Part shown: piece by piece, positions 1 to 19,208 of the stretch | Layout of the letters: each line of letters starts with the position of its first letter | How positions within the stretch are numbered: position 1 is the first letter of the stretch | Source of the DNA: Bacteroidales bacterium | Lineage (GTDB): Bacteria; Bacteroidota; Bacteroidia; Bacteroidales; UBA12077 | Direction: 5' to 3' | Length of the DNA stretch: 64,000 nt | NCBI GenBank assembly: GCA_028282585.1 | Contig: JANQHR010000034.1 | Coordinates: forward strand, 18,068 to 82,067 | Made by a program: the position numbers and the translations under genes | The notes under the pieces: model-generated | The model's database searches: none | What the model saw: the letters and a program-made list of their open reading frames with translations, nothing else | Told to the model about the DNA's origin: nothing

Positions 1-603
1 TTTCTCAGATTTAGTTGTGCTTAATACATCTTTTAAGAAATCTTTAACTTCAATTAGGTCAAGTAAATCTGTATCGGTCGTGTTTAATAGCTTTAGAAAT
101 TCCGAGATCAGGAAATTCTGATGTTTTTCAGATTTGTCATTTATGCGTAATGATTTAATGATCTTTGAAATAATCCCGGTTGTAAGTTCAGGCTTCTCTT
201 TTATTATTTTACCTGAGTTGCTGATACAATATTTAATTGTTGATATTTTTTCGTCATTAAGTTGTTTATAATAATCATCAATTATATGTTCAAAAAGATT
301 ATCCTTATCCACAACCATCAAGTTAGCTATCAGGTGCATACCATAATTTCTGTGGTATGAATTTTTATAGTGAAGCAAAGAAGAGAATTTAGCCCAATAA
401 CAATAAAATAACGAAGGTTCAACCTTTGTTGCCTCATCAAGAATCATATAAGAGTGGTAATAAACATTAATTGAATCAGTATCCAATAAATGCTTAACCA
501 AAATGTCTCTGAAATCTTTTTGACTTTTAGCTAAATCGAAATAAGGAGTAATATCAGCTTTAGTATCTGAAACAATTTGCAAATATTTATTCTCATCAAT
601 CAT
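1..603 (-). CDS. hypothetical protein, possibly alpha-helical/HEAT-like (3' end beyond window edge)
   Basis: ATG at 603 (CAT 601-603); frame read by hand is open to position 1 (MIDENKYLQIVSDTKADITPYF...); absent from the ORF track because the stop is outside the window. Confidence 0.7.
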   Translation of the reverse strand, partial: MIDENKYLQIVSDTKADITPYFDLAKSQKDFRDILVKHLLDTDSINVYYHSYMILDEATKVEPSLFYCYWAKFSSLLHYKNSYHRNYGMHLIANLMVVDKDNLFEHIIDDYYKQLNDEKISTIKYCISNSGKIIKEKPELTTGIISKIIKSLRINDKSEKHQNFLISEFLKLLNTTDTDLLDLIEVKDFLKDVLSTTKSEK

Positions 604-725
604 ATTTAGTTAATTAATATCGTACTTATATCTTGTTTTGCAGGGTGTTTAGTCAATTTTTACTTGTTTTTCTATCTAAAAATATTTTTATTAACTCTCG
701 TAAATAACTTGCAATGTTACTATAC

Positions 726-1289
726 TTAATTTCTTTTAAATGGTAACTTCCAAACATTTTTAAACGGAATAATCATGGATGTTCTTTTTTTATAATCAAG
801 ATAATCATCCCCAAAATCGTCGAATAATCTTTTTTCTTCGGTTCGTTTAAGATAGATTATAATAATCAATAAAAAAGACAAGCAAAAAATTAAAGAACCT
901 AATGAGTTAACTATTAAAGCGATTGCAAAATAGATAGAATTTATTCCAAAAACCATTGGATTTCTTGTATACTTATACGGCCCGGTGATAACTAATTTCT
1001 TTGAACGAGGACTTATTTCAATATTAAACACATCCGTTGGTCCTCCTTTACCTATTCTAAACAAATTAATATTTGACCAAATCGTAAATACCAATCCTGT
1101 TAATAACAATAATGCGGTGATCAGTATCCTTGGAGTAGTAGAATTTAAAATAGATGTACTAAAAAAGCTATGTTTGATTTTCGAGATTGAATAAATTATT
1201 ACCGGAATAACGATCACAAAAACCAAAAGTCCAATTGTATACCCACTTATATGCTTATATTTTTCTTGTTTAGATATTTCAACGCGCAT
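726..1289 (-). CDS. isoprenylcysteine carboxylmethyltransferase/PEMT family membrane protein
   Basis: TM helices plus LVITGPYKYTRNPM and EEKRLFDDFGDDYLDYKKRT..IP motifs. Confidence 0.85.
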   Translation of the reverse strand: MRVEISKQEKYKHISGYTIGLLVFVIVIPVIIYSISKIKHSFFSTSILNSTTPRILITALLLLTGLVFTIWSNINLFRIGKGGPTDVFNIEISPRSKKLVITGPYKYTRNPMVFGINSIYFAIALIVNSLGSLIFCLSFLLIIIIYLKRTEEKRLFDDFGDDYLDYKKRTSMIIPFKNVWKLPFKRN

Positions 1290-1349
1290 CGTTTTATGTA
1301 TGGTAAATCTTTAGATTAGTAAAGTCGATTAAGTTTTAGGTTGTTCAAA

Positions 1350-1486
1350 TTTAACATTTTCTGTACTATGTTTTATAACAACCCGTTAAACATTGGCTTT
1401 TTGATTAGCAATATACTTAAATAAATACAAAAGCGATTCAAGTTTGCACCTGAACCGCTTTTGCTTTTACACCTTGTTGACACTGG
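1350..1486 (-). repeat. degenerate attC-like intergenic element
   Basis: right end CAAGTTTGCACCTGAACCGCTTTTGCTTTTACACCTTGTTGACACTGG lies a few bp from the upstream gene's stop and resembles the other elements; left boundary approximate. Confidence 0.4.
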
Positions 1487-1489
1487 TTT

Positions 1490-2509
1490 TTATTTCATAT
1501 ATTTATCAAAAAACTCAATCATCTTTTCAGGATGAACACCAAAATAATTGTAACCGTCAAATCTTCTATTTGTTCCTTCAATCCAGAATAACTCTTTTTC
1601 TTCTGAGCTAATATTATCAAAGATTTCCTGAGCATCACGAGGATTATCTGTCCAAATGTCATCCAATACTTCTGCCATAAAATATGGTACTTTAACAGCA
1701 TGTGCATAGTTTTGCGGATGCATTTCACCGTTTGTAAAACCACCTAATTTTAATTGCTCAAAATCCATCAGTTCCATATAGCTCCCAACATTCATTAACT
1801 TAGCAAAAGTACTCATTAAAGCAGTCATAGAAACAGCCAATGGTCCCATAAAACACGTTAAGTCTTCAAATAATTCAGGTTTTCTGTACATTGCTTCCAT
1901 AGCTGCATTGGCACCTGTGCAACGATTGTAAAGCCCTACCATCATTTTACTTAACTTTGGATGGTTTTGCACATACTTTTGAGCACCAACCACATCACGC
2001 CATTCATACCTGCCAATTCCGCAAATACCTCCATTTGCTGCTCCACTATTTCCATGATTACGTAAATCATAAGCCAAAATATTATATCCTGATCTTGATA
2101 GATGCCCCATGTGTGCGACAAAATCTATTTCCAAAGTGTCAACATTTGAAAATGGTTCGCCAAAATGACCTGTAAATCCTGAACGACTCATTGGCATCGG
2201 GTGGTTGATGATTATTAATTTATCTGATTCTCCCTGAACTGAAGGAATATACCAGCCTTCAAGTGGAGTGCCATCATCAGAAGGAAAGTAAACGTCTTCC
2301 CAAGTGTCCATGCCATGGTCGGCCGGGGTTTTGTGCACAGGTGTTCTAAACATAGGACGAACAGCAAACTCTGCTAAATACTTGATTGTTCCATATTCTT
2401 GTTCCGTAATTGTTTTTTGCTGTTCAATTGCTTTGTTATAAGATTCTTCCCCCATTCTACCCTTAAGGGTGTTGTCAATTGCGTAATCTAATGTTTTTTC
2501 AAAAGCCAT
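1490..2509 (-). CDS. alpha/beta hydrolase fold protein
   Basis: FPSDDGTPLEGWYIP and YDLRNHGNS motifs; nucleophile elbow reads NRCTG (Cys); ATG at 2509 (MAFEK) preferred over ORF-track start 2542. Confidence 0.8.
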   Translation of the reverse strand: MAFEKTLDYAIDNTLKGRMGEESYNKAIEQQKTITEQEYGTIKYLAEFAVRPMFRTPVHKTPADHGMDTWEDVYFPSDDGTPLEGWYIPSVQGESDKLIIINHPMPMSRSGFTGHFGEPFSNVDTLEIDFVAHMGHLSRSGYNILAYDLRNHGNSGAANGGICGIGRYEWRDVVGAQKYVQNHPKLSKMMVGLYNRCTGANAAMEAMYRKPELFEDLTCFMGPLAVSMTALMSTFAKLMNVGSYMELMDFEQLKLGGFTNGEMHPQNYAHAVKVPYFMAEVLDDIWTDNPRDAQEIFDNISSEEKELFWIEGTNRRFDGYNYFGVHPEKMIEFFDKYMK

Positions 2510-2599
2510 GATTATAAATTTTATAGAATTAGTTATGTGCAAATATCCCTACTATATCTATGGCTTTATGAAAACAAATTACGGCAAAAAAGATACAAT

Positions 2600-3430
2600 T
2601 TACATATGACGGAATTTTGAAGGCGTAAAACCTGTTTGTTTGCGGAATAAACGGGAAAAATAATTTGGGTATTCAAACCCTAACTGATAAGCAATTTCAG
2701 CGATTGATTTATTTTTCTCCTGGATCATTAATTTTGCAGTATCTATAATGTACTGATGAATATGGCTTAAGGCTGGCTGCCCGGTATGAAACTTAACCAA
2801 ATCACCCAGGTAATTTGATGTTACGCTTAATTCATTGGCAAAATGGTTAACGGATGGTTGAACAACAGTCTCATTCTTTTGACTTTCATAATAAGTTTTT
2901 AAAAGTGCAAAAAAATCATCTACTAATTTTATCTGGGTTGAATTTCTTTCACCAAATTGTCTTTTATAAAACCCTGCTATGTGAGCAAACATAAGGTTAC
3001 AATAGGCGACTAAAATATTGATTGAAAAATTCTTTTTTTTATATTCATACAGCGCTTTTACAAATAATTCACTTATTAATTTTTCTTCACTTTTCATTAA
3101 AAATAAAGGCTCGTGCAAGCCATAATTAAGAAAAGAATACTCCAGGTGGTGATATTTAGTGATTAATTCTTCGTTGATATTAATAAAATAGCCAATCCAT
3201 GGGGAATCAGTTTTCCAATGTATAGCTTGATTCGGACTTGAGAAATACATAAAACCTTTTTCTTTTTCTGCTTCCAAACCATATTTTATCGAAATTCTGT
3301 AGAAGTTAGGAAATACCGGGGGAGAACTTTTTAAAAAATCAGATGGATACTCACCAATATCTATTAAATCATGCTTAGGCAATCTAACTTTAGTGTATGC
3401 ATTGAATGATTTTATATCTTTAAATTTCAT
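2600..3430 (-). CDS. AraC family transcriptional regulator
   Basis: C-terminal SIAEIAYQLGFEYPNYFSRLFRKQTGFTPSKFR; directly upstream of the hydrolase. Confidence 0.92.
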   Translation of the reverse strand: MKFKDIKSFNAYTKVRLPKHDLIDIGEYPSDFLKSSPPVFPNFYRISIKYGLEAEKEKGFMYFSSPNQAIHWKTDSPWIGYFININEELITKYHHLEYSFLNYGLHEPLFLMKSEEKLISELFVKALYEYKKKNFSINILVAYCNLMFAHIAGFYKRQFGERNSTQIKLVDDFFALLKTYYESQKNETVVQPSVNHFANELSVTSNYLGDLVKFHTGQPALSHIHQYIIDTAKLMIQEKNKSIAEIAYQLGFEYPNYFSRLFRKQTGFTPSKFRHM

Positions 3431-3443
3431 GGTCTTTTAATAA

Positions 3444-3582
3444 ATTACCGCCAATAACTCTAGCATAGTGTATTTGGCATTTTGAAATATCTGCCTGTCA
3501 GATCGATCTATGTTGTATTAATTGTTTTTATTTTCAAATTTAGCATAATCTGCCCAATGACCTATTATTTTTGCTATTCATA
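3444..3582 (-). repeat. attC-like imperfect palindromic element
   Basis: TTTGGCATTTTGAAATATCTGCCTGTCAGATCG and CAAATTTAGCATAATCTGCCCAATG align with blocks in the element at 7785-7934; arms ATTTGGCA/TGCCCAAT. Confidence 0.6.
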
Positions 3583-3592
3583 TTTGTTTTAC

Positions 3593-4267
3593 TCATTCAT
3601 TTAAATATTCTTCAATTACCGTAATGTCCAGGTTTGTTTTATTTGATATTTCTATGAGTGTCATTCCTTTTTGGTGAAGTCTTTTAGTTACACTTTGCAT
3701 TGTTTCACCAACCTCTATTAAATGATTATCAGGGTCATAAAATCGTATTGTTTTTTGTCCCCAGGATTCTTCATGGACATCGTGTAGCAACTCAATATTG
3801 CTATTTTTTAACGTAATAGCAATATTGTCTATACCGTCCATGTTAAAAACGATTAAAAAATCAGGATTTCTTGTTTTTAAGATTTTATTTTCTCCAATTT
3901 TGTTAAGTATGATATCATCATTTTCAAGTTCCCAAAGTCCAAAACCACTTTTAAAACTTAAACCTTTACCCATATCTTCTTCAATTTCCTGTTTTAAAAT
4001 ATTTGTATAAAAATCCGTAGATACTTCAATGTCCTTTACAAATAAAATGATATTACTAAATCTTATATCTCCCATTTTATGTGTTTTTTTTTGGTTTACA
4101 TTCTTAACTTCAAAACTTGATTTTATTTTAGCGCTATGTCTTTTTGAAGATGGCTTGCAGCAAGAAACCGTAAAGAGGATTGAAATAAAACATAAAATTT
4201 TAGTTAATCCTAATATATATTTCGTGAAAAAATCTTTGTAATTTATGTTTAGCACTTTTGCCCGCAT
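3593..4267 (-). CDS. VOC/glyoxalase family protein
   Basis: LFVKDIEVSTDFY and EESWGQKTIRFYDPDNHLIEVGE; start may be the ATG at 4075 (MGDIRF). Confidence 0.85.
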   Translation of the reverse strand: MRAKVLNINYKDFFTKYILGLTKILCFISILFTVSCCKPSSKRHSAKIKSSFEVKNVNQKKTHKMGDIRFSNIILFVKDIEVSTDFYTNILKQEIEEDMGKGLSFKSGFGLWELENDDIILNKIGENKILKTRNPDFLIVFNMDGIDNIAITLKNSNIELLHDVHEESWGQKTIRFYDPDNHLIEVGETMQSVTKRLHQKGMTLIEISNKTNLDITVIEEYLNE

Positions 4268-4282
4268 TATGTATAACCAATT

Positions 4283-5449
4283 TTAGGTGCTTTTATTCTT
4301 TTTTCTCGATATTAAAAATAGTATTGATGTCAATATTAGCATCAATCCCGATGAAATGTAAAAAGCATAAGTCAGGCTAAACTGACTGATAAAAATTCCT
4401 ATGATCAAGGGTGAAATAAATTGACCAAGAAACATGGTTGAAGATATTCCACCGATAATCTTTCCGCGATTTTTAATGGATACAACTTCCATTAGCCATA
4501 GGTTGCAATTTGGCATCAATAAACCAATTCCGAGCCCCGCAATAGCAAGACCAAGAAGTATTCCTGCATAAGTCACATTTTGGGCTATCAAAAAATAACC
4601 TAATGATATGAATAGAAAGGAAATAACGAAAATTTCCGGGAAACTAAAAATCTTTTTAATCGCTCCATATTTTATAGATGTTATTGCTCCTGTTAAAGTT
4701 GTTAGCGCTATTGCCACACCATTTAAGGTATTATTGATCTCTAACCTTTCATTAAGCAGAAATGGGATTTGTGTGGGAATCATATAGAAAAACACCATCC
4801 CCAAAAAACCGATTAAATAGACTAAAGCGACTATTTTTGCGTTTCTGTTTACAGTCATTTCCTGATTGCCTCTAATGTTTTCATAACCATCTTCTTTTTT
4901 AGGTTCGTAAAGAACAAATATTACCAATGGCAAAATCAAAAACGCAGCGAGATACAAAATAAAGGGAAACCTCCAATTCATATCCGCTAACAAGCCGCCT
5001 GCTGTTAAGAAAACTACGCCACCTAAAGACATAAAGGCTGCTTGACTACCAACAAAAGAATTACGTTCTTCTCCATCAAAATAATCGCTAATTAAGGTTG
5101 TTGCGATACTCATTATACCTGACACACCAATCCCAAGGATTGCACGACTTAGAAGAAGCAATTCAATTTGGCTAATAAAGTACCCGCTAAATCCACCTAT
5201 TCCATAGATTATAAGTGAATAAACCAATAAATTTTTTCTGCCCCATTTGTCTGAGAGTGTTCCCATAATAGTTCCGAAGAAGGCAATGATGAGGGCAGGC
5301 ATTGTTATGATGAGCTTAATAACTATATCGGAGGACTCAGAAAAAAAACTTGCAATTTCTGTTAATGCAGGGGCTATTATTGCACCTGCCATAACAGTCA
5401 TTGAACTGGCAAAAAGTAATACTGCTTTTATTTTTGTGTTTTGTTTCAT
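4283..5449 (-). CDS. MFS transporter
   Basis: motif A GTLSDKWGRK, about 12 hydrophobic segments, WRFPF. Confidence 0.93.
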   Translation of the reverse strand: MKQNTKIKAVLLFASSMTVMAGAIIAPALTEIASFFSESSDIVIKLIITMPALIIAFFGTIMGTLSDKWGRKNLLVYSLIIYGIGGFSGYFISQIELLLLSRAILGIGVSGIMSIATTLISDYFDGEERNSFVGSQAAFMSLGGVVFLTAGGLLADMNWRFPFILYLAAFLILPLVIFVLYEPKKEDGYENIRGNQEMTVNRNAKIVALVYLIGFLGMVFFYMIPTQIPFLLNERLEINNTLNGVAIALTTLTGAITSIKYGAIKKIFSFPEIFVISFLFISLGYFLIAQNVTYAGILLGLAIAGLGIGLLMPNCNLWLMEVVSIKNRGKIIGGISSTMFLGQFISPLIIGIFISQFSLTYAFYISSGLMLILTSILFLISRKKNKST

Positions 5450-5459
5450 TTTGTTCTAA

Positions 5460-5615
5460 TTAGACTTAACGATCTCGGATATAAGTTGACTCGTCCTAAA
5501 AAAAGTTTACAGATTCCTAATTATCAGAAAGGCTTTTGTTTACTTTCATAAATTTGATTTTTTCTGTTTTAAAAAAGAAGTTAGGAGTGAATTTTATTTT
5601 GCATATTTTAGGAAT
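5460..5615 (-). repeat. attC-like element (divergent subtype)
   Basis: minus-strand core GTTAAGT (plus-strand ACTTAAC 5464-5470) just upstream of the MFS start; arms CTCGTCCTAA/TTAGGAGTGA. Confidence 0.45.
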
Positions 5616-5623
5616 TCTAAAAA

Positions 5624-5974
5624 TTATTTTAGTTTACCTATGTGACTTTTCCAATTTTTTGTTTTCAAAAGAAATTTATCATAACCTTCATTTTTTATAA
5701 AATTCAAGGACTCTTGGCATTTTTTATTATCACGAGTTCCTATCTTAAATTTATTGTTGAAGATTTTACAATTAGAAAATTGATCACAATCAGCGCAGGT
5801 GTCTAATTTTTTGTCCCGAAAACAGCACAATTTAATTTTACATTTGGCTTTGTTAATATCTCTTTCTTTTGTGTCATATCCTATCTTACAACCTTTACAG
5901 CTTTTATCCACAAAAGCTTTGCATTTTTCACAATAAGCACCGCAACATCCTATGTAAATTTTTGATTTTTTCAT
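5624..5974 (-). CDS. Cys-rich DUF3795-like protein
   Basis: GCCGAYCEKC..CKGC..CKIKLCC..CADC..C pattern. Confidence 0.8.
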   Translation of the reverse strand: MKKSKIYIGCCGAYCEKCKAFVDKSCKGCKIGYDTKERDINKAKCKIKLCCFRDKKLDTCADCDQFSNCKIFNNKFKIGTRDNKKCQESLNFIKNEGYDKFLLKTKNWKSHIGKLK

Positions 5975-5975
5975 A

Positions 5976-6371
5976 CTATCCCTTTTTTACCAACCAATAT
6001 ATTTCCGAAGTTATTAATATTATTGCAAAATCAACCAATAAATCCCATCTGAAAAAATGACTTAGGTGGCTTTGACCAGATGGAAGGACAAACATTGGAA
6101 CTGTTATAGTGGATTCTAAAATTAAATTTATAACAAACCAGATAAAACCTAAGAGAAATCCATTTGGTTTTTCACTTGATTTATAATACCAAAATGAAAT
6201 AATTAAAGTAGCGAGAATCACACTGATGAAATGTATTGCTAGTGGTACTGGTGACCAAATGCAAGCATCTTTAATGGGGAAGATGAAGGCTTGTATTGAT
6301 ACTAGTATGTCAATGAGTATCCATAAAATAACCCCAAGTATAATTGCTTTTATTTTTGTATTTTGTTTCAT
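5976..6371 (-). CDS. hypothetical membrane protein (about 4 TM)
   Basis: hydrophobic segments; stop abuts the next gene's start. Confidence 0.75.
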   Translation of the reverse strand: MKQNTKIKAIILGVILWILIDILVSIQAFIFPIKDACIWSPVPLAIHFISVILATLIISFWYYKSSEKPNGFLLGFIWFVINLILESTITVPMFVLPSGQSHLSHFFRWDLLVDFAIILITSEIYWLVKKG

Positions 6372-6380
6372 TTCGTTCTA

Positions 6381-6518
6381 ATTGCACTTACGTTCGGTGT
6401 ATGCGTAGTGCGGGATTTAAAGTATTTTCTTGTCAAACTAAGATAAAACTTAATAAAAGAAATGACTTAAAATTCCACTCTATCATCCGCATGGCGTATG
6501 ATACATGGTTATATAAGT
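6381..6518 (-). repeat. attC-like imperfect palindromic element
   Basis: arms GTGTATGCGTAGTGCGG / CCGCATGGCGTATGATAC; minus strand begins TTATATAAC just after the upstream stop and ends CGTAAGTGCAAT. Confidence 0.65.
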
Positions 6519-6521
6519 TAC

Positions 6522-7736
6522 TTATTCTGCTGTTTCCAGTTTTGTAATTTTTTCTTTTAGTTCTTCATTTTCTTCCGAAAGCCTATTCAATTGTTCTTTC
6601 ATAGCTTTAGTTTCTTTATTTTGTTCTATCATATAAAGAGTCAATTCTTCTATTTTCTGCAAAAGTTTAGCATTCATTTTTCCAACTTCAATTCCATTCT
6701 CTAAAATTTCTTTTTCCGATGGAATATCAGGTAAATGATTATTTTCTTCAATAAAACTTTCAACTGATTCTAAGTCTTTCAATTCATAGTCTTTGTTAAA
6801 CACAAAATCAGACCAAGCACCTGTTTCAACAATAATTTCTCTTGCACCAATTGTTCCGTCTACAGCTAATCTATGTGTACCTGTTGAAGTAGTTCCGATT
6901 CCAACAACACCAGATGTTATAGCAAAATAAGCACTTCCTTTAGATTCAATTTTTCCATTTCTAGCACAAAACCGAATATTCCAGTCAGAATTATTGGTGT
7001 TTATTCCACCCGTGGTTGGATTATAAATACCAAGCTTATACCAAACAGATAATCGTACATTATCTAATCCATCTTGCGTTCCCTTCCAAAAATATGAAGT
7101 TCCAACTGAAGGTATAAATACTTTATAATCTGAATCAAATCTTGTATCGCCACCTTTAACTTGAAGCTTGCAACTTGGTGCATTCGTCCCAATTCCTACA
7201 TTTCCATCGCCTCTAACTACCATTAAGTTATTTACCGTTCCTGAACCAGTTTTTGCTCTTAAATATAACGAATAATCATTAGCAGTATTTCCCGGTGCAT
7301 CAGCAGTAATTGCAGTATTAGCTGGACCACTTACACCGTTGTCATACGTCACAACTAATTTACTACCAGGAACTGTTGTCCCAATTCCAACATTGCCATT
7401 TTTTAAAGTCATTTCAGTTTTAAAATATGTTCCATTAAAAGACGTAAAATCTAATCTCGGACTTGATCCTTGTGATGTATTATAATTAATAATACTTTCT
7501 CCGTGACTAGCTGAATAATTCCAACCCAAAGCTAAACCTTGTGAAGTTTTTGGATTATTATTTCCATTTAAATTATTTTCGAAATACACCCACGCATCTT
7601 CACCTATATCATAAACATGTAAAATACCTTTTGGGTTGGTTCTTTTCAATCCAACCTTATCTCCGGTTTCCGTAATTTGAGCAAAAGAAAATTGTGCAAT
7701 TAGTGTTAAGAATAGAATACTTACTATTTTTCTCAT
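6522..7736 (-). CDS. secreted protein with GNVGIGT repeats and a C-terminal tail-fibre chaperone-like/coiled-coil region
   Basis: signal peptide (..FSFA|Q), three GxVGIGT motifs, WSDFVF..NHLPDIPS..LLQKIEELTLY. Confidence 0.85.
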   Translation of the reverse strand: MRKIVSILFLTLIAQFSFAQITETGDKVGLKRTNPKGILHVYDIGEDAWVYFENNLNGNNNPKTSQGLALGWNYSASHGESIINYNTSQGSSPRLDFTSFNGTYFKTEMTLKNGNVGIGTTVPGSKLVVTYDNGVSGPANTAITADAPGNTANDYSLYLRAKTGSGTVNNLMVVRGDGNVGIGTNAPSCKLQVKGGDTRFDSDYKVFIPSVGTSYFWKGTQDGLDNVRLSVWYKLGIYNPTTGGINTNNSDWNIRFCARNGKIESKGSAYFAITSGVVGIGTTSTGTHRLAVDGTIGAREIIVETGAWSDFVFNKDYELKDLESVESFIEENNHLPDIPSEKEILENGIEVGKMNAKLLQKIEELTLYMIEQNKETKAMKEQLNRLSEENEELKEKITKLETAE

Positions 7737-7784
7737 TTTTTTTATATTTAAATGTATTAATTATTTGCATTTACGTTCTACAGA

Positions 7785-7934
7785 TTAGTTTATAGCGGTT
7801 CGGCTGATATGGGGAGCGTTTGGCATTTCAAAGCACTAACTTATCAAATCGCTATGCCGTTAATTAAATATTGTTTCATTCAAATATAGCACTTTCAGCG
7901 CAATGTTTTATGAGCACCGCGTGTTGTAACTAGT
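7785..7934 (-). repeat. attC-like imperfect palindromic element
   Basis: homologous to 3444-3582; minus-strand start ACTAGTTACAAC contains the TAG stop of the upstream gene. Confidence 0.65.
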
Positions 7935-9192
7935 GCTTGTTATTAGTTTTATCCACAATCCCTATAAAATATTCGTTCTTTTCTGGGTCATACTTATAAT
8001 ATGACAAATCAATGAATCCATAATTAGTATCAATTACTTCACTCAACATTGCTAATCCAATATTTGGATCAGTAGAACTAACTGCTGAGTTTCCATCTTG
8101 ATATTCTTTTAGCAACCTTCCCATGTATAACTCATCAAAAATCCCCCAACATTTAAATGCAATTAATTCACACCTTCCTTTCATAAGGGACTTTAAATTA
8201 TCCCAAGTGGTATATCCTTCTTCTCTTGGAGTACAAAAATTCTTTAAAAATTCAATTCCAGCATCTGTGATAGCTCCAAGCGATTTGCCATGCCCCTCGG
8301 GACAGTAATTTACTATAATATCAATTAATTTTTCAGTCATATCATTTGGCTCAAATTCTTCATCATGAAAAAGTCTTTCTATTGATTGAAATGGAGCAAA
8401 ATTTAATATTGTAATACTATATGGAGCGAGACTCGAAGGTGAGGTATCTCTCCATAAGAATGCAAATCCATGATTCTTTTGTGAATAACCTTTAGTTGCG
8501 ATAACAGATAATGCCGTTTTCATTTGTTCTAAATGAGGGTCAAAAAGATCTCTGTTCTCAGGTTCAGAATATAAGTTGTAATCGTACAAGCATATTTGAA
8601 ATCCACCAAGATGCTTTGGGCTAAGCTTTAAAGCAACATTTTTATCACAAAGTATCCCAATGTCTATTATTTTCAATTTTTTAACCCCATTATCAATAAT
8701 TGGTTCCAAACAGATAATATTTTTCTGTAACCAAAATATTTCATTAAATAAATAATGTTTTAGTAAAGTTGTCCACTCTGTTGAGATAATTACATTGATA
8801 ACATCTCCTTCTGAAATAAATGGGATATATGATTTTATCTCACTCGCATATGCTGATATTTCAGTTCCAGCCTGCCTTGATGGTCCTACTAAATTTTTTA
8901 ACTCAACTATTACAATGCTTTCAGTTTCTGATGCATAAAGTAAAAAATCTGGTTTTAAAGAATCTTTAGGATTTAACGATATATTTTCATTTTCAGATAA
9001 AATTTCATTTATATGAAGAGATTTGCAACAATACTCAAAGCTTTCAAACACTTTCTTATCTGCTAGAGATGATACTTTACAATTATCTAAGTAATCATTA
9101 TTCTTAATTAGGTCTGATAATCCTGTTTCTTTTTTAAGTTGCTTACTAAGCCACTCTTGCATATCAGATTCAGAATTAAAAATTTTATTCAT
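7930..9192 (-). CDS. hypothetical protein with N-terminal PD-(D/E)XK nuclease-like domain
   Basis: ESDMQEWL ... LKPDFLL ... IVIVELKN ... QAGTEISAY. Confidence 0.65.
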   Translation of the reverse strand: MNKIFNSESDMQEWLSKQLKKETGLSDLIKNNDYLDNCKVSSLADKKVFESFEYCCKSLHINEILSENENISLNPKDSLKPDFLLYASETESIVIVELKNLVGPSRQAGTEISAYASEIKSYIPFISEGDVINVIISTEWTTLLKHYLFNEIFWLQKNIICLEPIIDNGVKKLKIIDIGILCDKNVALKLSPKHLGGFQICLYDYNLYSEPENRDLFDPHLEQMKTALSVIATKGYSQKNHGFAFLWRDTSPSSLAPYSITILNFAPFQSIERLFHDEEFEPNDMTEKLIDIIVNYCPEGHGKSLGAITDAGIEFLKNFCTPREEGYTTWDNLKSLMKGRCELIAFKCWGIFDELYMGRLLKEYQDGNSAVSSTDPNIGLAMLSEVIDTNYGFIDLSYYKYDPEKNEYFIGIVDKTNNKH

Positions 9193-9212
9193 GTAAGTAT
9201 GGTTTTTCTTAC

Positions 9213-9237
9213 ATTAGCTACAACTTGTTATTATAAC
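9213..9237 (-). other. putative attI-like recombination half-site 1
   Basis: minus strand GTTATAATAACAAGTTGTAGCTAAT; matches 13642-13666 up to GTT. Confidence 0.45.
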
Positions 9238-9364
9238 CAATAAGTTTAAAAAACATTGTTCTTGTTTTAAGTTGACATAAGAACCCAAATTTTTGCATAA
9301 ACATATGCATCAAGAAAATATCCGGAAAACAGGTTAATAATTTTTTATTCATTTGAACCATTAC

Positions 9365-9534
9365 AATACTTTTTTCTTTCCCTTTCGTATTCGCAATAGC
9401 TTTGATAAGTGTTTCGAGTATTAAAATTAAAAACTATTTTTATAATAGCAAGGCTGTTCTATGAATTAAATATTTAAACGAGATAAACAGAAGTAAAAAA
9501 TCCCGACAAAATCTGCCAGGATTGCTGTCCGACT
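9365..9534. repeat. direct repeat copy 1 (tRNA-Gln 3' 10 nt + terminator + downstream flank)
   Basis: near-identical to 13668-13830, ending in CTGTCCGACT. Confidence 0.95.
9495..9523 (-). terminator. intrinsic terminator within the repeat, downstream of the metal-chaperone operon
   Basis: minus strand AATCCTGGCA-GATTT-TGTCGGGATT-TTTT. Confidence 0.65.
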
Positions 9535-9590
9535 GGTCTGCCGGCAGGTTTCTTGTTTTAAATATTGTCCATATACCATTCCGGATAAAA

Positions 9591-9797
9591 TCATAATTCA
9601 CTTAAAGCTCGTTTGAAATAGCTAATAATTTTAAGCGTATATTCTTTACCATAAGTGGCAACATATTTCTTATGCTCAGCATGCTGGGGATTTTCTAGAA
9701 CATCAAGTCTTTGCCTGATGTATTCTTCTGAGAATGGTTGTTTATCTTCTCCAAAGATACATTGTTTCCATTCCTGGTATGATTGTTTAATATCCAT
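9591..9797 (-). CDS. small hypothetical protein
   Basis: 68 aa, starts 2 bp after the COG0523 gene stop. Confidence 0.7.
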   Translation of the reverse strand: MDIKQSYQEWKQCIFGEDKQPFSEEYIRQRLDVLENPQHAEHKKYVATYGKEYTLKIISYFKRALSEL

Positions 9798-9799
9798 TG

Positions 9800-10975
9800 C
9801 TAAGAGGCTTTTTTCAGAAATCCAAACTCAATCATTTCATCTTCAGTACAAAGACAAGCATCAAGTCCTTTCCTGATTTCATCTTCAGGCATATCTTGTC
9901 CAATATGTACAATCTCGATGTGTCGGTCGCCAAAATGTTTATCCCAACTTGCCATAATTAATTCTTCGTTTGCCTGAAATGCAGGATGTTGGTTTCGATC
10001 CTTTATAGTTAGTGATGCCCACCAAACGCCGACTTTATTAATGCTCGACATACGACCTGCATGGCTCCAAACCAATGCATCGCCAGGTTGTGAAGCTAAC
10101 CAATAGAACCCTTTACTACGCAATATTGAACTGTGCCAATGATCATTTACATACTTTTCAAAGCGTTGGGGGTGAAAAGGGAAGCGGCTTCGGTAAACAA
10201 ATGAGCCAATTCCATATTCGTCAGTTTCCGGGATATGCTCAGATTCAAGTTCTTTTAACCATCCGGCACTTCTTGATGCTTCTTCAAAATCAAACATTCC
10301 TGTATTAAGAATTTCCGATAGTTTAACCTTACCATAAGATGTTGTAATAATCTTTGCGTCTGGGTTAAATTTTTTCAATACCCTTTTTATTTCTTCCAGT
10401 TTATAAGGTGATGAAAGGTCGGCTTTATTGATAACAATTACATTGGCAAACTCAATTTGATCTGTCAGTAAATCAACAATATTGCGCTCATCTTCCTGAT
10501 CGTTTAAATCACGTTCGGCAATGGTATCCATCGACATAAAGTCTTTTTCAAAATTTAATGCATCTATAACAGTTACCATCGTATCAAGGCTGCATAGTTT
10601 GGTAAGGTCCAAGCCAAGTTCTTCAAAGGAGTAGCTAAAAGTTTGAGCTACCGGAAGGGGTTCAGATATTCCTGTACTTTCTATGAGCAGGTAATCAAAT
10701 CTGCCTTCCGAAGCCAGTTTTGAAACCTCTTTCACCAAATCATCGCGCAAGGTGCAGCAAATACAACCGTTGCTCATCTCCACAAGTTTTTCTTCTGTCC
10801 GAGAAAGTGTAGAACCTTGTTCAACTAATTTGCTGTCAATATTTATATCGCTCATATCATTTACAATTACAGCTACTTTTAAATTACTACGGTTGTTAAG
10901 TACATGATTGAGCAAGGTGGTTTTTCCAGCTCCTAAAAAACCACTCAATACGGTCACAGGAATTTTTTTGTCCAT
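9800..10975 (-). CDS. COG0523/CobW family metallochaperone GTPase (YciC/ZigA-like)
   Basis: [22 protein letters not shown], Cob[10 protein letters not shown]. Confidence 0.95.
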
Positions 10976-10987
10976 GTATATAAGATT

Positions 10988-11374
10988 TTAAATTTCACAA
11001 CAATTATCAATACACTGGCAGTACTTTTTGTTGTACAAATGCAATGCAAATAATAAAAAAGCAGATACGTAAAGCCAAAACAAAGGCAATGAAGCAATTT
11101 CGGTGTGATGGTTTACAATTAAAAAGCTAAGTATGCCAAATAAAATATAAAATGCGTGCTTTACCCACTTTTTAGAACTGTTTTTTGCAGCAAAATAAAC
11201 AGCTACAAAGGATATGGTTAAAAACAGAAAATCTATAGCACGCCACCAAATAGGGCTTTCTGCGCAACAGCTTGCTGCACAGGCCTGGGCAATAAAAATA
11301 AAAGGTGTTATTATGCAATGTACAAGGCATAAGCTTGAGCTTGCCATCCCAATGTTATCAGCTGAAATTCTCAT
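10988..11374 (-). CDS. MerC domain membrane protein
   Basis: DNIGMASSSLCLVHCI, about 4 TM, Cys-rich tail. Confidence 0.85.
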   Translation of the reverse strand: MRISADNIGMASSSLCLVHCIITPFIFIAQACAASCCAESPIWWRAIDFLFLTISFVAVYFAAKNSSKKWVKHAFYILFGILSFLIVNHHTEIASLPLFWLYVSAFLLFALHLYNKKYCQCIDNCCEI

Positions 11375-11438
11375 TTCGTTTCATCTTTAATTTATTTTTC
11401 GCCTATATTAAGAACTGTTGTAGTTTTAATAATTCCAT

Positions 11439-12479
11439 CTATTCTTTTTGTATGTTGGTTTCTTCGACATGCGCTACCAATAATTGATAGAGATTATCTT
11501 CTAATAGATCATGGTTTATTTTTTTTCCAATAAAAACAAGCTTGCAAAAAGGTGTTTCGTTTTCCCAATTATCTCCCTGTTCAATCATAAAACTATCTCT
11601 AACCGCTTGGAAAATATGCTTTTCAGGCGTATCATCGAAACTGATAATTCCTTTTACCCTAAATATGTTTTCTCGGTTAAAAAACAGAAAATTCTGCATC
11701 CAAAAACTAAATTTCTCCATGTCAAAACTTCCAGGGATAATGAAACCATACGATTTAATGTCGTGTTTATGATCCTGATGTGTTTGCTTGCTCAACAGCG
11801 AAGTCTGGCTTATAACCGGGCTTTTCACAAAACTTAAATTTTGGAACGACATAGTTGTTTTTTCTATGGTTTTCCCCGAAAAAGCTTTCATGTCAAGTAA
11901 ATTAACATTTTCAACCTTTGCATATTTAGCTGTATAAAGTATGGCCATTGGATTTATGCTTTCGATTACTTTTTCGAGCTCTGTTAAGTACCCGGATTGT
12001 ATAGTATCTACTTTGTTAAGAATCACAACATCGGCTAAGGTCAATTGTTTCCTTACTTCGGGTTGTTCATCTATCATGTCTTCCATAATGGAACAGTCGG
12101 CCAGACAAATAACACAATCAAGCCTAAAATTTAGCTGTATCTCTTCTGATGAAAGAAATGCCTTAATAATTGAATCAGGGTCGGCAATTCCTGTGCTTTC
12201 TATCAACAAGTGGTTAAATGGAAATTGGCTGTTGAGTAATTTTGTAATTGTTTCATAAAAACCTTCGTTGAGTGAACAGCAAATACAACCATTCGAAAGT
12301 TCAAAAATGTTTTGGTCCGTACCCACAATTAAGCCACCATCAATACCTATTTCACCAAATTCATTCTCAATGATGGCAAACTTTTTTTCCGGATGGTCTT
12401 TAATCAATTGGTTGAGCAAGGTTGTTTTTCCTGCCCCTAAAAAACCTGTTATAATCGTTACTGGGATTCTGCTATCCAT
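11439..12479 (-). CDS. second COG0523/CobW family GTPase
   Basis: [23 protein letters not shown], His patch HQDHKHD, FRVKG. Confidence 0.95.
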   Translation of the reverse strand: MDSRIPVTIITGFLGAGKTTLLNQLIKDHPEKKFAIIENEFGEIGIDGGLIVGTDQNIFELSNGCICCSLNEGFYETITKLLNSQFPFNHLLIESTGIADPDSIIKAFLSSEEIQLNFRLDCVICLADCSIMEDMIDEQPEVRKQLTLADVVILNKVDTIQSGYLTELEKVIESINPMAILYTAKYAKVENVNLLDMKAFSGKTIEKTTMSFQNLSFVKSPVISQTSLLSKQTHQDHKHDIKSYGFIIPGSFDMEKFSFWMQNFLFFNRENIFRVKGIISFDDTPEKHIFQAVRDSFMIEQGDNWENETPFCKLVFIGKKINHDLLEDNLYQLLVAHVEETNIQKE

Positions 12480-12487
12480 ATCTTTGA

Positions 12488-12889
12488 TTAATTACATTTT
12501 GTACAATATCCTTTTATTAAGAGCTCAGCCTGTTTCGGTTTATAATAATCGGGCAAATCTTTATATTCCCAGTTTACTTCAGGAATGCAAAACACCCTGC
12601 TACATTTTTGGCAATAAAAATGAGCATGTTGTTTGGTTTGGTTTTGCTTTTCGGTAATGGCGTATTTAATAAGGGTATTGTCGATTACTATTTTATGAAT
12701 GACCTCTTTCGCAATAAGTGTTTTAAAATTTCGATAAAAGGTGGTCCGATCGAAATTGCTGGAAATAGCTGTTTTAACCTCCTCTTCTGATAATGGAGTT
12801 GGAGATTCTACAATAGCCTTTATTATTTCTTCACGGCATGAAGTCCGAATTAAGTTGTTTTGTTGTAATATTTCAGTAACCTTATTCAT
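12488..12889 (-). CDS. Fur family regulator (Zur-like)
   Basis: DRTTFYR, HAHFYCQKC, terminal CTKC. Confidence 0.9.
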   Translation of the reverse strand: MNKVTEILQQNNLIRTSCREEIIKAIVESPTPLSEEEVKTAISSNFDRTTFYRNFKTLIAKEVIHKIVIDNTLIKYAITEKQNQTKQHAHFYCQKCSRVFCIPEVNWEYKDLPDYYKPKQAELLIKGYCTKCN

Positions 12890-12909
12890 ATTTGCAACAA
12901 TGATTTAAA

Positions 12910-12930
12910 TGCAATAATATTGCAAATATA
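12910..12930 (-). promoter_or_regulatory. candidate Fur/Zur-family operator overlapping the -7 promoter element
   Basis: palindrome TGCAAT-AAT-ATTGCA (12910-12924); minus-strand TATATTTG (12923-12930) fits the Bacteroidota TAnnTTTG consensus. Confidence 0.7.
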
Positions 12931-13039
12931 ATAAACAATATATTAAATGTATTGTTTTCTAAAACAATAATTTGTCCCAACCTATCTTATGCCTGGCAGA
13001 AAGGAAACAGCTTTTTTACAAACTTAGGACGTGTTAGGG

Positions 13040-13173
13040 TTTATGCGTTTAGTTAATATGCTGTTATGGGTGGAATTACCTCAGAGAGTGGGAACAAACA
13101 AAATAACTCCTATCAAATTTAGCGGATTACAGTCCTTGTCGCCCATTTTGTATATACAGCGTTAACGGGGCAT
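13040..13173 (-). repeat. attC-like element downstream of the SH3 gene
   Basis: arms ATGGGTGG/TCGCCCAT; internal CAAATTTAGC shared with 3444-3582; end TATATACAGCGTTAACGGGGCAT. Confidence 0.55.
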
Positions 13174-13216
13174 TATTTTTTATATTTTTGTCTATTAAAT
13201 AAGAAACTTAGAAAGC

Positions 13217-13606
13217 TTATAACTGGAAAGCTTTTGGGCTAATTACTTCATCAGGAATCCAACCTTCTTTATTATTGCTTACGTTCCTAACCCAAGTCCA
13301 GCCGTTCAATGATTTTATCTTTATGACCTTTTCGCCTACATTTATATTCAATTCTTGAGCACTGTACTCTTCTTTCACAACTCCTTCCAAATTATCATTC
13401 GTTTTATCTATAAGCTGTACAGGTACCCAACCTCCTTGTCCTTTTACATTTTCAGTCCAAACCCAATTTTTCCACTTTTCTTCTGGAGCAAGTTCACCAA
13501 GTTTAACTATCTCACCCTTCGATAATTTTATTGGATTAGGGTATTGAGTTCTGTGATCTGAAACACATTCCCAAACTGTGTTGTCATTGTATTCAATTTG
13601 ATTCAT
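13217..13606 (-). CDS. tandem SH3-domain protein
   Basis: two copies of W(V/T)W..GW(V/I)P; YSAQELNINVGE. Confidence 0.85.
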   Translation of the reverse strand: MNQIEYNDNTVWECVSDHRTQYPNPIKLSKGEIVKLGELAPEEKWKNWVWTENVKGQGGWVPVQLIDKTNDNLEGVVKEEYSAQELNINVGEKVIKIKSLNGWTWVRNVSNNKEGWIPDEVISPKAFQL

Positions 13607-13641
13607 AATTCGCTTTTCTTTTGAGGTATCTATCTTTTTTA

Positions 13642-13666
13642 ATGTCTGCTAACTTCTTGCTATAAC
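13642..13666 (-). other. putative attI-like recombination half-site 2
   Basis: minus strand GTTATAGCAAGAAGTTAGCAGACAT, abutting direct repeat copy 2. Confidence 0.45.
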
Positions 13667-13667
13667 A

Positions 13668-13830
13668 AATACTTTTTCTCGCCTTTTCGCATTCGCAATA
13701 GCTTTGGTAAGTGTTTCGAATATTAAAAACTATTTTTATAATAGCAAGGCTGTTCTATGAATTAAATATTTAAATGAGATAAACAGACGTAAAAAATCCC
13801 GACAAAATCTGCCGGGATTGCTGTCCGACT
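13668..13830. repeat. direct repeat copy 2 (overlaps the tRNA-Gln 3' end)
   Basis: near-identical to 9365-9534. Confidence 0.95.
13791..13819 (-). terminator. tRNA-Gln terminator
   Basis: minus strand AATCCCGGCA-GATTT-TGTCGGGATT-TTTT. Confidence 0.75.
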
Positions 13831-13893
13831 AGGGCTCGAACCTAGACTCTTCTGAACCAAAATCAGACGTGTTGCCAATTACACCATCGGACA
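13821..13893 (-). tRNA. tRNA-Gln (TTG)
   Basis: acceptor TGTCCGA/TCGGACA, anticodon arm TCTGA-TTTTGGT-TCAGA, T-loop GGTTCGAGCCC; CCA not encoded. Confidence 0.97.
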
Positions 13894-13907
13894 ATTGAAT
13901 GAGTGTG

Positions 13908-13937
13908 CAAATTTAACAAAAAATTATTTTTAGCAAA
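13908..13937 (-). promoter_or_regulatory. Bacteroidota sigma70 promoter for tRNA-Gln
   Basis: minus strand TTTG-N18-TAAATTTG. Confidence 0.7.
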
Positions 13938-13967
13938 TATTTTTAGAAGTTTTTTTGAAAAATCCTT

Positions 13968-15476: not shown

Positions 15477-15557
15477 TATTTCATAATTAAAGGTAAGATT
15501 TTGATCACGGTAAGTTTAAAGTGATAGCTATAAAATTCTTACTTATGGAGTTTAAAG

Positions 15558-15594
15558 GATTGGATTATCAAAATACTGATTTAATAATCCAATC
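15558..15594 (-). terminator. inverted repeat after the long pspC-domain gene
   Basis: GATTGGATTAT-N15-ATAATCCAATC. Confidence 0.5.
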
Positions 15595-15615
15595 AATTAG
15601 AAATTCAATAATTAT

Positions 15616-17235: not shown

Positions 17236-17250
17236 TTTAGTTCGATTTTA

Positions 17251-17574: not shown

Positions 17575-17591
17575 ATCTATTTATTTTAATT

Positions 17592-19163: not shown

Positions 19164-19208
19164 AATTCAAATACTTTATGATTTATAATTCTATAAAACA
19201 CTTTACAA

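Follow-up and report, generated by a model that had tools for sequence, protein, structure and literature searches.

A probable integron-type gene cassette cluster in a Bacteroidales genome and a candidate recombinase family without the IntI-specific insertion

The cassette cluster of the window

The window (the whole 64,000-nucleotide stretch analysed) begins with a long run of co-oriented genes. Every ORF of at least 110 aa within 1-19808 lies on the minus strand, extending the initial annotation's observation that all genes in 1-9192 do so. Within 1-9224, a cassette unit comprises one or two genes in the same orientation and, after them, an attC-like site of about 137 nt (Table 1). The genes had been described as functionally unrelated, and the Pfam families of the cluster proteins (PEMT, alpha/beta hydrolase, AraC, VOC/glyoxalase, MFS and DUF3795) bear this out; four cluster proteins had no Pfam match. 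Cassette gene A matched nothing in Pfam, NCBIfam or PADLOC, and cassette E gave a weak lactonase-like match in NCBIfam. The C-terminal part of gene B recurs in further cassette genes of the same genome (G000), and the DNA at its end (6400-6912) had 73-82% matches on G000 contigs C170, C138, C169, C36, C166 and C159.

Table 1. Features of the cassette cluster and its flank (window coordinates)
Position	Strand	Feature	Basis
9335-9540		Direct repeat, middle copy, derived from tRNA-Gln flank	BLAST, direct-repeat search
9216-9224	-	Putative first-cassette start GTTGTAGCT	24 nt upstream of ATG at 9192
7930-9192	-	Cassette gene A, 420 aa	ORF list
7789-7930	-	attC-like site E5, full length, R' mutated to GCT	Covariance model 85.5 bits, E 2e-15
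6522-7736	-	Cassette gene B, 404 aa, fibre-like	ORF list
6384-6518	-	attC-like site E4, full length, R' mutated to GTA	Covariance model 76.8 bits, E 1e-13
5624-6371	-	Cassette C: 131-aa membrane protein (5976-6371) and DUF3795 protein (5624-5974)	ORFs, Pfam
5450-5623	-	Spacer E3, outside site family	Fold z +1.25
3593-5449	-	Cassette D: MFS transporter (4283-5449) and VOC/glyoxalase-fold protein (3593-4267)	Pfam
3448-3584	-	attC-like site E2, full length, R'' mutated to AGC	Covariance model 80.0 bits, E 3e-14
1490-3430	-	Cassette E: AraC-type regulator (2600-3430) and alpha/beta hydrolase (1490-2542)	Pfam
~1405-1487	-	Terminator-like perfect hairpin after hydrolase gene	ssDNA fold -20.6 kcal/mol, z -3.27
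1283-1386	-	Degenerate attC-like site E1	Covariance model 24.5 bits, E 0.004; nhmmer 58-59 bits
726-1289	-	Cassette F: phospholipid methyltransferase-like gene	Pfam PEMT
1-603	-	Last gene of cluster, 215 aa on full contig, without family match	

Six imperfect palindromes had been named as cassette separators. Three of them (3444-3582, 6381-6518 and 7785-7934) were mutually homologous members of one site family, with covariance-model scores of 76.8-85.5 bits and E-values of 1e-13 to 2e-15 (E2, E4 and E5). The element at 1350-1486 was resolved into a terminator-like hairpin and a degenerate copy, E1, which retains its 5' and central parts but neither the R boxes nor the greater part of the 3' arm. 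The hairpin was rejected as a family member, with only 9.6 bits under the covariance model. The elements at 5460-5615 (E3) and 13040-13173 were dropped from the family, since the model gave nothing at E<=10 for either with filters off. Homology between E3 and E4 is confined to their 3' ends, on the E3 side GTTAAGTC... together with the beginning of the next gene; a 55-nt direct repeat (5414-5468 and 6336-6390, 87%) matches the E3 3' end to the E4 3' end plus cassette start. The nearest copies of E4 lie on contigs C166 and C85. The 5' spacer of E5 is about 3 nt longer than that of the family, and the upstream gene's stop codon overruns the model start by 1 nt.

A CALIN comprises at least two attC sites no more than 4 kb apart, without an integron integrase nearby. 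Sites E5, E4 and E2 and the absence of a nearby integrase agree with this definition. The three or four attC-like sites of the window are spaced at 1.4-2.9 kb, and no tyrosine recombinase was found on the 82-kb contig, all 10 matches in G000 being on other contigs. At the upstream end, GTTGTAGCT matched the reverse-complemented head of the next attC, AGTTACAAC, better (8/9) than any other stretch of 7930-9600; with a by-chance expectation estimated at about 0.1 matches, its position as the first-cassette start is suggestive. We read window 1-9224 as a CALIN-like, partly decayed array of integron-type gene cassettes that has no integrase close by, and put this reading, together with the recombination mechanism outlined below, at a probability of roughly 0.7.

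The site family, its fold and its junctions

The family, of about 137 nt, consists of AAC/GTT boxes, an unpaired spacer (6 vs 7 nt, non-complementary) and a covarying stem of 16 positions. The boxes were 84% and 100% paired in the alignments tested. In 50 distinct copies, 78.5% of the cells were paired compared to 62.9% in shuffled alignments (0/500), covariation was 0.264 compared to 0.090, slid controls reached 30-39%, and 12 of the 14 L-stem pairs showed compensatory changes. A further 59 copies, drawn independently from other classes and aligned by fitting to the covariance model, gave 95.4% paired versus 65.0% and compensatory changes in 13 of 14 pairs. All elements of an attC hairpin, namely the R''/R' boxes, central spacer, L''/L' stem and variable loop, were present in the family. 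The AAC and GTT boxes that had been described were found in 100% of the 59 independent copies, whereas those of the window are mutated (GCT, GTA and AGC).

The stem is long-range and closes a loop that measures roughly 85 nt by count on the model alignment. The earlier suggestion that folding the elements as ssDNA would reveal paired R and L boxes with extrahelical bases held for the pairing across the family; bulged bases were absent, with 16 occupied columns in both arms. Two appositions are fixed among the 59 copies: A (58/59) opposite C (59/59), and A (44/59) opposite C (49/59). These A·C appositions of the coding strand are T·G on the opposite strand. When the coding strands of the six named elements were folded one by one, the z-scores were -3.27, -1.19, +1.25, -3.83, +0.14 and +1.30, and RNAalifold did not find the long-range stem with 7 copies. 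The consensus stem was recovered on the non-coding strand only, which had the more stable fold in 42 of 59 copies (Wilcoxon p 1.6e-5). The palindromes are thus not visible in coding-strand folds of single sequences; the family hairpin appears only through many-copy covariation and opposite-strand folds.

The proposed scan of the genome and its relatives detected 8 copies in G000 by nhmmer and 13 by the covariance model at E<=1e-5; across the phylum, 58 of the 151 genomes sampled carry sites. A co-oriented ORF of at least 60 codons ended within -60 to +30 nt of the 5' end in 60 of 79 sites, compared to 13% of 1640 random positions.

Over 69 adjacent site pairs from many genomes, the bases after GTT complement those before the AAC of the next site, not of their own. 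In 27 pairs, the 4 nt after GTT matched the next site's head at a mean of 2.96/4 and perfectly in 13 (own head, 1.22/4; random, 1.35/4). Among 42 independent pairs examined over 6 nt, 23 were complementary at 6/6 and 28 at five or more positions; the own head reached five or more in 7 and random positions in 4.4%. Circular cassettes cut at G|TT leave just this complementarity as their footprint, which places the cassette boundary there, with the bases beyond GTT belonging to the next cassette. Two adjacent-site pairs inside the window did not carry this footprint (1/4 and 2/4 complementary). Because the R boxes of the window's own copies are eroded, the cluster is probably a fossil array in which recombination has ended; the decay of several sites had been recognised initially.

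Contig C70 of G000 carries an intact array. One 265-nt contig of depth 4 from run X2, another sample in the same study as the probable source sample, joins C70:1543 to 2576 and omits 1032 nt, exactly one cassette; the joint sits in a shared AACCGTT, and this shared stretch ends at the GTT. Three contigs from X1 and X3 part from C70 0-2 nt after GTT, at 1552, 2583 and 3950. In the related genome G025, window genes recur in other attC contexts at 63-88% aa identity, whereas flanking core genes are 93-97% identical: the VOC homologue (71% aa) lies in a different attC context on contig C17, the cassette F homologue (63% aa) inside the attC array of C9, and the homologue of the last cluster gene (72% aa) next to an attC on C57. 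A gene pair in common with the G025 array (C44:13166-16521) does not end at attC sites. The one-cassette deletion and the three diverging contigs are population evidence that cassettes are excised and inserted as units. The integron-like cassette system first proposed is supported by the compensatory changes, the junction footprint and the cassette-exact deletion.

A candidate recombinase and its distribution

The candidate enzyme in G000 is an IntI-related tyrosine recombinase of 376 aa (C169:2007-3134). It scored 221 bits with NF040815 (cut-off 220) and 214 bits with TIGR02249 (cut-off 265), and its best solved relatives are XerA and IntI4. The IntI-specific insertion is missing: 22 aa stand where IntI4 has 65, and the profile of 12 family members has 17 positions opposite 60 IntI4 residues. 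Most members of the family have an extra N-terminal domain of about 70 aa without a Pfam match; a subgroup without this extension shows the classical divergent layout. Arrays lie downstream of the recombinase and co-oriented with it in 9 loci of the order, and among 10 array-rich genomes of other classes, 8 have an array next to their best family member. Besides the co-oriented and divergent architectures, one opposite-oriented case was found (G035). The first cassette boundary lies 130, 134 and 786 nt beyond the recombinase stop codon in three loci. In the tree, 20 array-linked enzymes cluster with three canonical IntI, apart from host Xer-like proteins (SH-aLRT 99). In the complete genome G008, which holds the closest relative of the C169 enzyme, no site was found within 10 kb of that enzyme.

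In the 151-genome sample, sites and enzyme occurred together in 34 genomes, enzyme only in 17, sites only in 24 and neither in 76 (odds ratio 6.3). A site lay within 20 kb of the enzyme in 20 of the 34 genomes carrying both (count from tables). Co-occurrence was weak at the order level (23/28 vs 21/33, p 0.15), and G016 (15 sites) and G028 (11 sites) had no recombinase-family match at E<=1e-30. We infer from neighbourhood and co-occurrence in these sequences that the insertion-less recombinase is a candidate for the enzyme acting on the sites. The recombinase acting in trans from elsewhere, as postulated earlier, would then be the C169 protein, whose relatives flank arrays; none is encoded on the window contig.

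Interpretation and comparison with known systems

The sites might be transcription terminators, promoters or REP/MITE-like repeats with no role in recombination, which is very improbable. They do stand after stop codons, a true terminator-like hairpin lies beside E1, and three window copies carry TAnnTTTG, which we take to be the Bacteroidota -7-like promoter box; that box is at a fixed position in only 12 of 82 copies. An intrinsic terminator or REP-like repeat would form a short local hairpin, rich in G+C and bearing a T run, and would lack site-specific junctions, a description that only the hairpin at 1405-1487 fits. The family stem is long-range and disrupted by A·C on the transcribed strand, no Rfam family matched the sites, and the junction footprint and cassette-exact deletion are unexpected for terminators or repeats. 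It is unlikely, too, that these are ordinary attC sites served by canonical IntI, in trans or from unassembled DNA, with the insertion-less recombinase a bystander or employed in another job. The G000 assembly has 173 contigs, and canonical IntI occurs in three site-carrying genomes (TIGR02249: G060, 326 bits; G104, 425 bits; G124, 394 bits), so that an IntI acting in trans is conceivable. Moreover, the IntI-specific domain is held necessary for integron recombination in passages of PMC8138268 and PMC4889954. On the other side, of 61 relatives, 44 of which carry sites, one had a canonical IntI exceeding the TIGR02249 cut-off, and G000 had none. No 137-nt site was found near the IntI genes of G060, G104 and G124, only a weak 86-nt match (E 0.028) adjoining that of G104. 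The sites also lack the bulged attC bases which, according to IntI4 structure work, the IntI-specific domain reportedly contacts.

How the cluster reached its position is a matter separate from the nature of the sites. It may have been delivered whole to the tRNA-Gln flank by a genomic island carrying an old cassette array, a view we hold only tentatively. A 66-nt direct repeat (92-100% identity), with one copy left of the window (C44 17671-17735) and the other in 9335-9540, brackets the whole cluster (C44:17735-27402), so that block arrival may have happened, and a 175-nt repeat copy brackets the neighbouring zinc island beside tRNA-Gln. In G025, the homologue of C44:4869-6758 directly follows the tRNA, leaving about 25 kb extra in G000; G008 has one repeat copy about 260 nt from the tRNA. 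However, no integrase was found in either island, the 66-nt repeat is present also on C32, C45 and C83 and may be a common repeat, and the cassette start matching the first attC sits just inside the boundary, which fits in-place insertion equally well.

On the integron reading, one strand of the site would fold with the AAC/GTT R box, an unpaired spacer and then the 16-position L stem. A tyrosine recombinase would cut beside the triplet and excise or insert cassettes as IntI does; the acting enzyme would be the IntI-related family flanking arrays in many genomes, represented in G000 by the C169 protein. Strand choice or recognition may come from the two fixed A·C appositions, which read T·G on the complementary strand. 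Whether Bacteroidota harbour an unrecognised, phylum-wide integron lineage, whose integrase either lost the IntI-specific domain or was always without it and whose attC sites lack bulged bases and use these appositions instead, seems to us evenly balanced. If the insertion-less enzyme is the recombinase, the integron-defining domain would not be required to recombine folded attC sites, and the lineage may show a step between Xer-type recombinases and IntI. The initial interpretation was supported overall, except that two of the six elements are not members and the recombinase is not a canonical IntI.

Treponema-type inverted integrases carry the IntI-specific domain; the recombinase family here is without it. 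"Inverted integrase" integrons such as Treponema's are mentioned in a passage of PMC4889954. XerA and an "integron-like" subgroup of simple tyrosine recombinases have been described (Smyshlyaev 2021, PMC8138268), and the C169 protein resembles that subgroup, falling just above the cut-off of NF040815 and below that of TIGR02249. The relevant passages of PMC8138268 link no insertion-less member to cassette arrays, whereas insertion-less members here flank such arrays and most have the N-terminal domain. Compared to a CALIN, the window has at least three attC-like sites and no tyrosine recombinase on its contig, with several R boxes mutated. Superintegrons of the Vibrio type consist of co-oriented small genes, each followed by a conserved recombination hairpin that exceeds 100 nt and has AAC/GTT boxes. 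The arrays described here resemble these sedentary chromosomal integrons in their co-oriented small genes, AAC/GTT hairpins of that length, junctions at G|TT and cassette proteins mostly without a known family. They differ in that the linked recombinase lacks the IntI-specific insertion, the sites are equal-armed without bulged bases, and one site family covers a phylum rather than one genus.

The cassette cluster of the window and its genomic setting

The window comprises the last 64 kb of the 82-kb contig C44, in an assembly of 4.9 Mb, 173 contigs, and 32% G+C. For one of its proteins, the nearest homologues bear names indicating Bacteroidales or Bacteroidota. The initial annotation had assigned every gene from 1 to 9192 to the minus strand; this was confirmed and found to extend further, to every ORF of at least 110 aa from 1 to 19808. 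Its description of the genes as functionally unrelated agreed with the Pfam matches in 1-9192 (PEMT, alpha/beta hydrolase, AraC, VOC, MFS, and DUF3795), where four genes had no Pfam match. NCBIfam and PADLOC searches with six cassette proteins yielded nothing usable: a single weak lactonase-like match and zero defence matches.

A profile made from the window spacers detected eight copies of an attC-like repeat in the genome, four in the window and the rest on contigs C166, C85, C70, and C116, and all eight began where a co-oriented gene has its stop codon. The window was scanned with R2, a covariance model of the family, with filters off. Six spacer elements had been named initially: three were full family members, one was a degenerate member beside a separate terminator-like hairpin, and two, in the spacers 5450-5623 and 13040-13173, gave zero R2 matches. 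The R boxes of the window copies were mutated (GCT, GTA, AGC). No Rfam family matched these elements. In the phylum sample, sites were present in 58 of 151 genomes and 37 of 89 genera. A promoter role of the elements was rejected, the motif TAnnTTTG being at the fixed position in only 12 of 82 copies.

Features of the window and associated contigs
Feature	Position	Strand	Details
attC-like site	window 7789-7930		R2 85.5 bits
attC-like site	window 6384-6518		R2 76.8 bits
attC-like site	window 3448-3584		R2 80.0 bits
Degenerate attC-like site	window 1283-1386		R2 24.5 bits, E 0.004
tRNA-Gln flank, direct copy	window 9335-9540
tRNA-Gln flank, direct copy	window 13662-13830
tRNA-Gln flank, direct copy	C44 17671-17735 (locus L014)
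Zinc-limitation-type island	window 9591-12889		two CobW-family GTPases, MerC-like membrane protein, Fur-family regulator
tRNA-Gln	window 13820-13893	minus
Carbon-nitrogen hydrolase gene	window 13968-15476
IntI-related recombinase	C169:2007-3134		376 aa

Two sequence repeats were observed within the cluster. A 55-nt direct repeat (87%) at 5414-5468 and 6336-6390 takes in an attC or spacer end, the ribosome-binding region, and the initial 12 codons of two unrelated genes, encoding the MFS transporter and a 131-aa protein, so that the two proteins have a common N-terminus. The segment 6400-6912, which comprises the 3' third of a 404-aa fibre-like gene and the following attC, was repeated at 73-82% in at least six further places of the same genome (C170, C138, C169, C36, C166, and C159) and likewise in the relatives G015, G019, G025, and G028. 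These copies make up a cassette-borne gene family with a common C-terminal module.

The locus was compared with that of the close relative G025, in which the surrounding core genes were 93-97% identical at the protein level. The tRNA-Gln of G025 lies directly before the homologue of C44:4869-6758, indicating about 25 kb of additional DNA in the genome under study. On other G025 contigs, either adjoining attC arrays or lying in them, were homologues of window genes at 63-88% identity: C57 has that of the 215-aa gene, C9 that of PEMT, and C17 that of VOC. The ends of one gene pair common to both genomes were not at attC sites. The zinc island was 86-96% identical (protein) to a block on G025 contig C42.

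Three direct copies of the tRNA-Gln flank, with 84-100% identity, enclose first the zinc island and then the cassette cluster, and the complete genome G008 carries its tRNA-Gln with one repeat copy about 260 nt off. This arrangement looks like serial insertion at one site; no integrase was found inside the repeat-flanked islands. A 66-nt direct repeat flanks the entire cassette cluster and is part of a 175-nt tRNA-Gln-flank repeat that also flanks the neighbouring zinc island; since it stands on both sides, the cluster may have arrived as one block. In most genus members the tRNA-Gln match lay about 15 nt from that of the next conserved gene, and in the genome under study the carbon-nitrogen hydrolase gene lies between the two.

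Folded structure, cassette junctions, and mobility

The elements had been described as palindromes, and folding of each as ssDNA had been proposed as a check. Single-sequence folds of the coding strand were unconvincing, four of the six named elements folding no better than shuffles. RNAalifold found no long stem in seven copies and, with DNA parameters, no coding-strand stem in 32. The stem was clear in an alignment of 50 distinct copies from 61 related genomes, in which the YAAC of the 5' end paired with the GTTR of the 3' end to form the R box, followed by an unpaired spacer of 6 versus 7 nt and by L boxes forming a 16-position stem that encloses a loop of about 80 nt. Pairing occurred in 78.5% of cells, compared to 62.9% after shuffling (0 of 500 shuffles as high) and 30-39% when the partners were slid by 1-3 columns; the covariation score was 0.264 versus 0.090, and compensatory changes were present in 12 of 14 stem pairs. 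Another 59 copies, taken from other classes and outside model building yet aligned to the model, demonstrated 95.4% pairing versus 65.0%, compensatory changes in 13 of 14 pairs, and an invariant AAC/GTT.

Both arms are equal in length, and the stem therefore has no bulged bases. At two stem positions the coding strand instead has fixed appositions of A and C (A in 58/59 and C in 59/59 copies at one, 44/59 and 49/59 at the other), which become T opposite G on the other strand, so the consensus stem is predicted for the non-coding strand alone. Of 32 copies, 20 folded more stably as this strand; in the set of 59 the figure was 42 (p 1.6e-5).

Integron crossover takes place at G|TT, and the bases 3' of GTT are part of the next cassette. 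They should thus be complementary to the next attC at its inverse core, and not to the inverse core of their own site. The 82 non-redundant hits provided 27 pairs of neighbours on the same strand with less than 4 kb between them. The 4 nt after GTT complemented the next head at a mean of 2.96/4, with 13 perfect pairs, compared to 1.22 for the own head, 1.30 for the reverse control, and 1.35 for random pairs, and complementarity extended to the full 9 nt in many of the 27. Over 6 nt, 23 of 42 pairs from other classes were perfect and 28 reached at least 5/6, a level reached with the own head in 7 and in 4.4% of random pairs. A co-oriented ORF of at least 60 codons ended -60 to +30 nt from the site start at 60 of 79 sites versus 13% of 1640 random positions. 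The footprint was absent from the window sites (scores of 1/4 and 2/4); in the first window cassette, GTTGTAGCT at 9216-9224 matched the complement of the next site's head in 8/9 positions, a weak match alone.

In one comparison array (L125, G104:C33:370001-389000), the same nine letters, GTTGAAGAA, followed four of six attC sites and were not complementary to the next site's head. A cassette start occurring repeatedly or a shared insert could account for them.

On contig C70 of the genome under study, five sites form an intact array over 5 kb, and contigs of four public sequencing runs were aligned onto this contig. A 265-nt contig of run X2 (depth 4, zero mismatches) joined C70 position 1543 to 2576, omitting 1032 nt, exactly one cassette, and at its joint the two sites have seven letters in common, AACCGTT, the last three being the GTT of each. 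Contigs of runs X1 and X3 parted from C70 0-2 nt past the GTT at 1552, 2583, and 3950. Coverage of C70 by runs X2-X4 contained gaps, which play no part in this evidence. The mobility evidence comprises one small contig; X2 is another sample from the same study as X1, the probable source run, and the runs are not independent of the source study. The initial observation was confirmed in part, and the attC structure, the junction footprints, and the cassette-exact skip on C70 support the original interpretation as integron-type cassettes. The window holds an eroded cluster of genuine cassettes without an integrase. Its own message is modest, and it is useful mainly as a thread leading to a wider system.

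The recombinase and its association with arrays

A recombinase encoded elsewhere had been postulated, consistent with the lack of any tyrosine-recombinase match on C44, the presence of a candidate on contig C169, and the position of its relatives beside arrays. The C169 protein was the best match in the genome to the integron-integrase model, with 214 bits (cut-off 265), and scored 221 bits with NF040815 (XerA/integron integrase). It aligned with IntI4 of Vibrio (2a3v) in two pieces, with 22 residues opposite 65 in IntI4, and a profile of 12 family members had 17 positions opposite 60 IntI4 residues, indicating that the enzyme is without the IntI-specific insertion. Residues 1-68 form a predicted small beta/alpha domain with no Pfam match. 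The structure model had a mean pLDDT of 76 and a pTM of 0.49, and a fold search with it ranked XerA and IntI4 first, adding nothing past this likeness. A search for loci related to the protein returned eight, all from other phyla and of no help on context. A quick maximum-likelihood tree of 27 proteins, rooted with four Xer-like proteins of the same genome, placed the 20 array-linked enzymes and three canonical IntI in one clade (SH-aLRT 99), with no resolution of the branching inside it.

In the order-level sample, sites lay downstream of and co-oriented with the enzyme in nine loci (two in G023, and one each in G037, G003, G031, G043 with seven sites, G025, G033, and G041), were divergent in three, and had the opposite orientation in one. 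For most other enzyme copies, the contig ended 100-500 nt away on the 3' side. In G008 and G015, R2 placed no site less than about 10 kb from the recombinase. Past the enzyme's stop codon, the head of the first site has its exact complement (GTT plus 6 nt) at 130 nt in one genome, 134 nt in another, and 786 nt in a third. An array adjoined the best family member in eight of 10 array-rich genomes from other classes; five of these enzymes were co-oriented with it and three divergent, all three of the latter lacking the N-terminal extension.

Co-occurrence was not significant in the order-level sample (23/28 vs. 21/33). The enzyme family was present in 51 of the 151 genomes of the phylum sample: both enzyme and sites were found in 34, enzyme only in 17, sites only in 24, and neither in 76, giving an odds ratio of 6.3 (p 5e-7) among genomes that are related and not independent. 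By our own count from the tables, 20 of the 34 genomes with both have a site no more than 20 kb from the enzyme. Canonical IntI was found in one of 61 relatives and two of five further genomes, and R2 detected no 137-nt site beside any of these IntI genes, that of G060 included. By position, an attC family spread over the phylum is linked with an IntI-related recombinase that lacks the defining insertion, and we infer that enzymes of the C169 type act on these sites.

Three further observations concern recombinase loci. Locus L122 (G104:C10) has a weak 86-nt match (E 0.028) at positions 144-229, a short way upstream of a canonical IntI gene and in divergent orientation to it; the match may represent a classical attC type of smaller length, present alongside the 137-nt family in the same genome. 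Locus L013 on C169 contains, at 1243-1857 and at 1-118, a noncoding repeat about 615 nt long, with at least eight copies in the genome (C55, C36, C170, C85, C138, C155, C77, and C169), several at contig ends, and no Rfam match. One copy is close downstream of the recombinase gene and another starts inside an attC-like site (C169:99-161); the repeat may be an element whose targets are attC loops, or itself an attC whose loop is giant. At locus L087 (G043:C7, 10022-12641), two paralogues of the insertion-less recombinase, one of 371 aa and one of 440 aa, stand in tandem upstream of an array of seven sites spaced 530-980 nt apart.

Comparison with known integrons

Integrons are the main known bacterial device for storing and shuffling single genes, and they are recognised by the IntI-specific domain on the one hand and by a general model of attC on the other. 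In the portions of the literature covered, Bacteroidota are treated as almost integron-free: the IntegronFinder 2.0 paper lists Bacteroidetes with In0 only, plus one complete integron in Salinibacter (PMC9024848), and a 2024 preprint places Bacteroidota among the clades earlier found without integrons (10.1101/2024.07.02.601686). The sections covered of Cury 2016 judge recombinases near attC without intI_Cterm, of which there are 21, not to be IntI (PMC4889954), and those of the archaeal integron paper stress the additional domain as defining (PMC9668308). The openly accessible literature covered held no description of these sites in Bacteroidota, nor of arrays there that go with an insertion-less integrase. 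The array-linked recombinase would fail the standard filter for integrases.

If confirmed, the system would extend the known range of integrons and give access to a large reservoir of cassette genes from marine and environmental Bacteroidota. It would also provide a natural test of whether single-strand hairpin recombination needs the IntI insertion and bulged bases.
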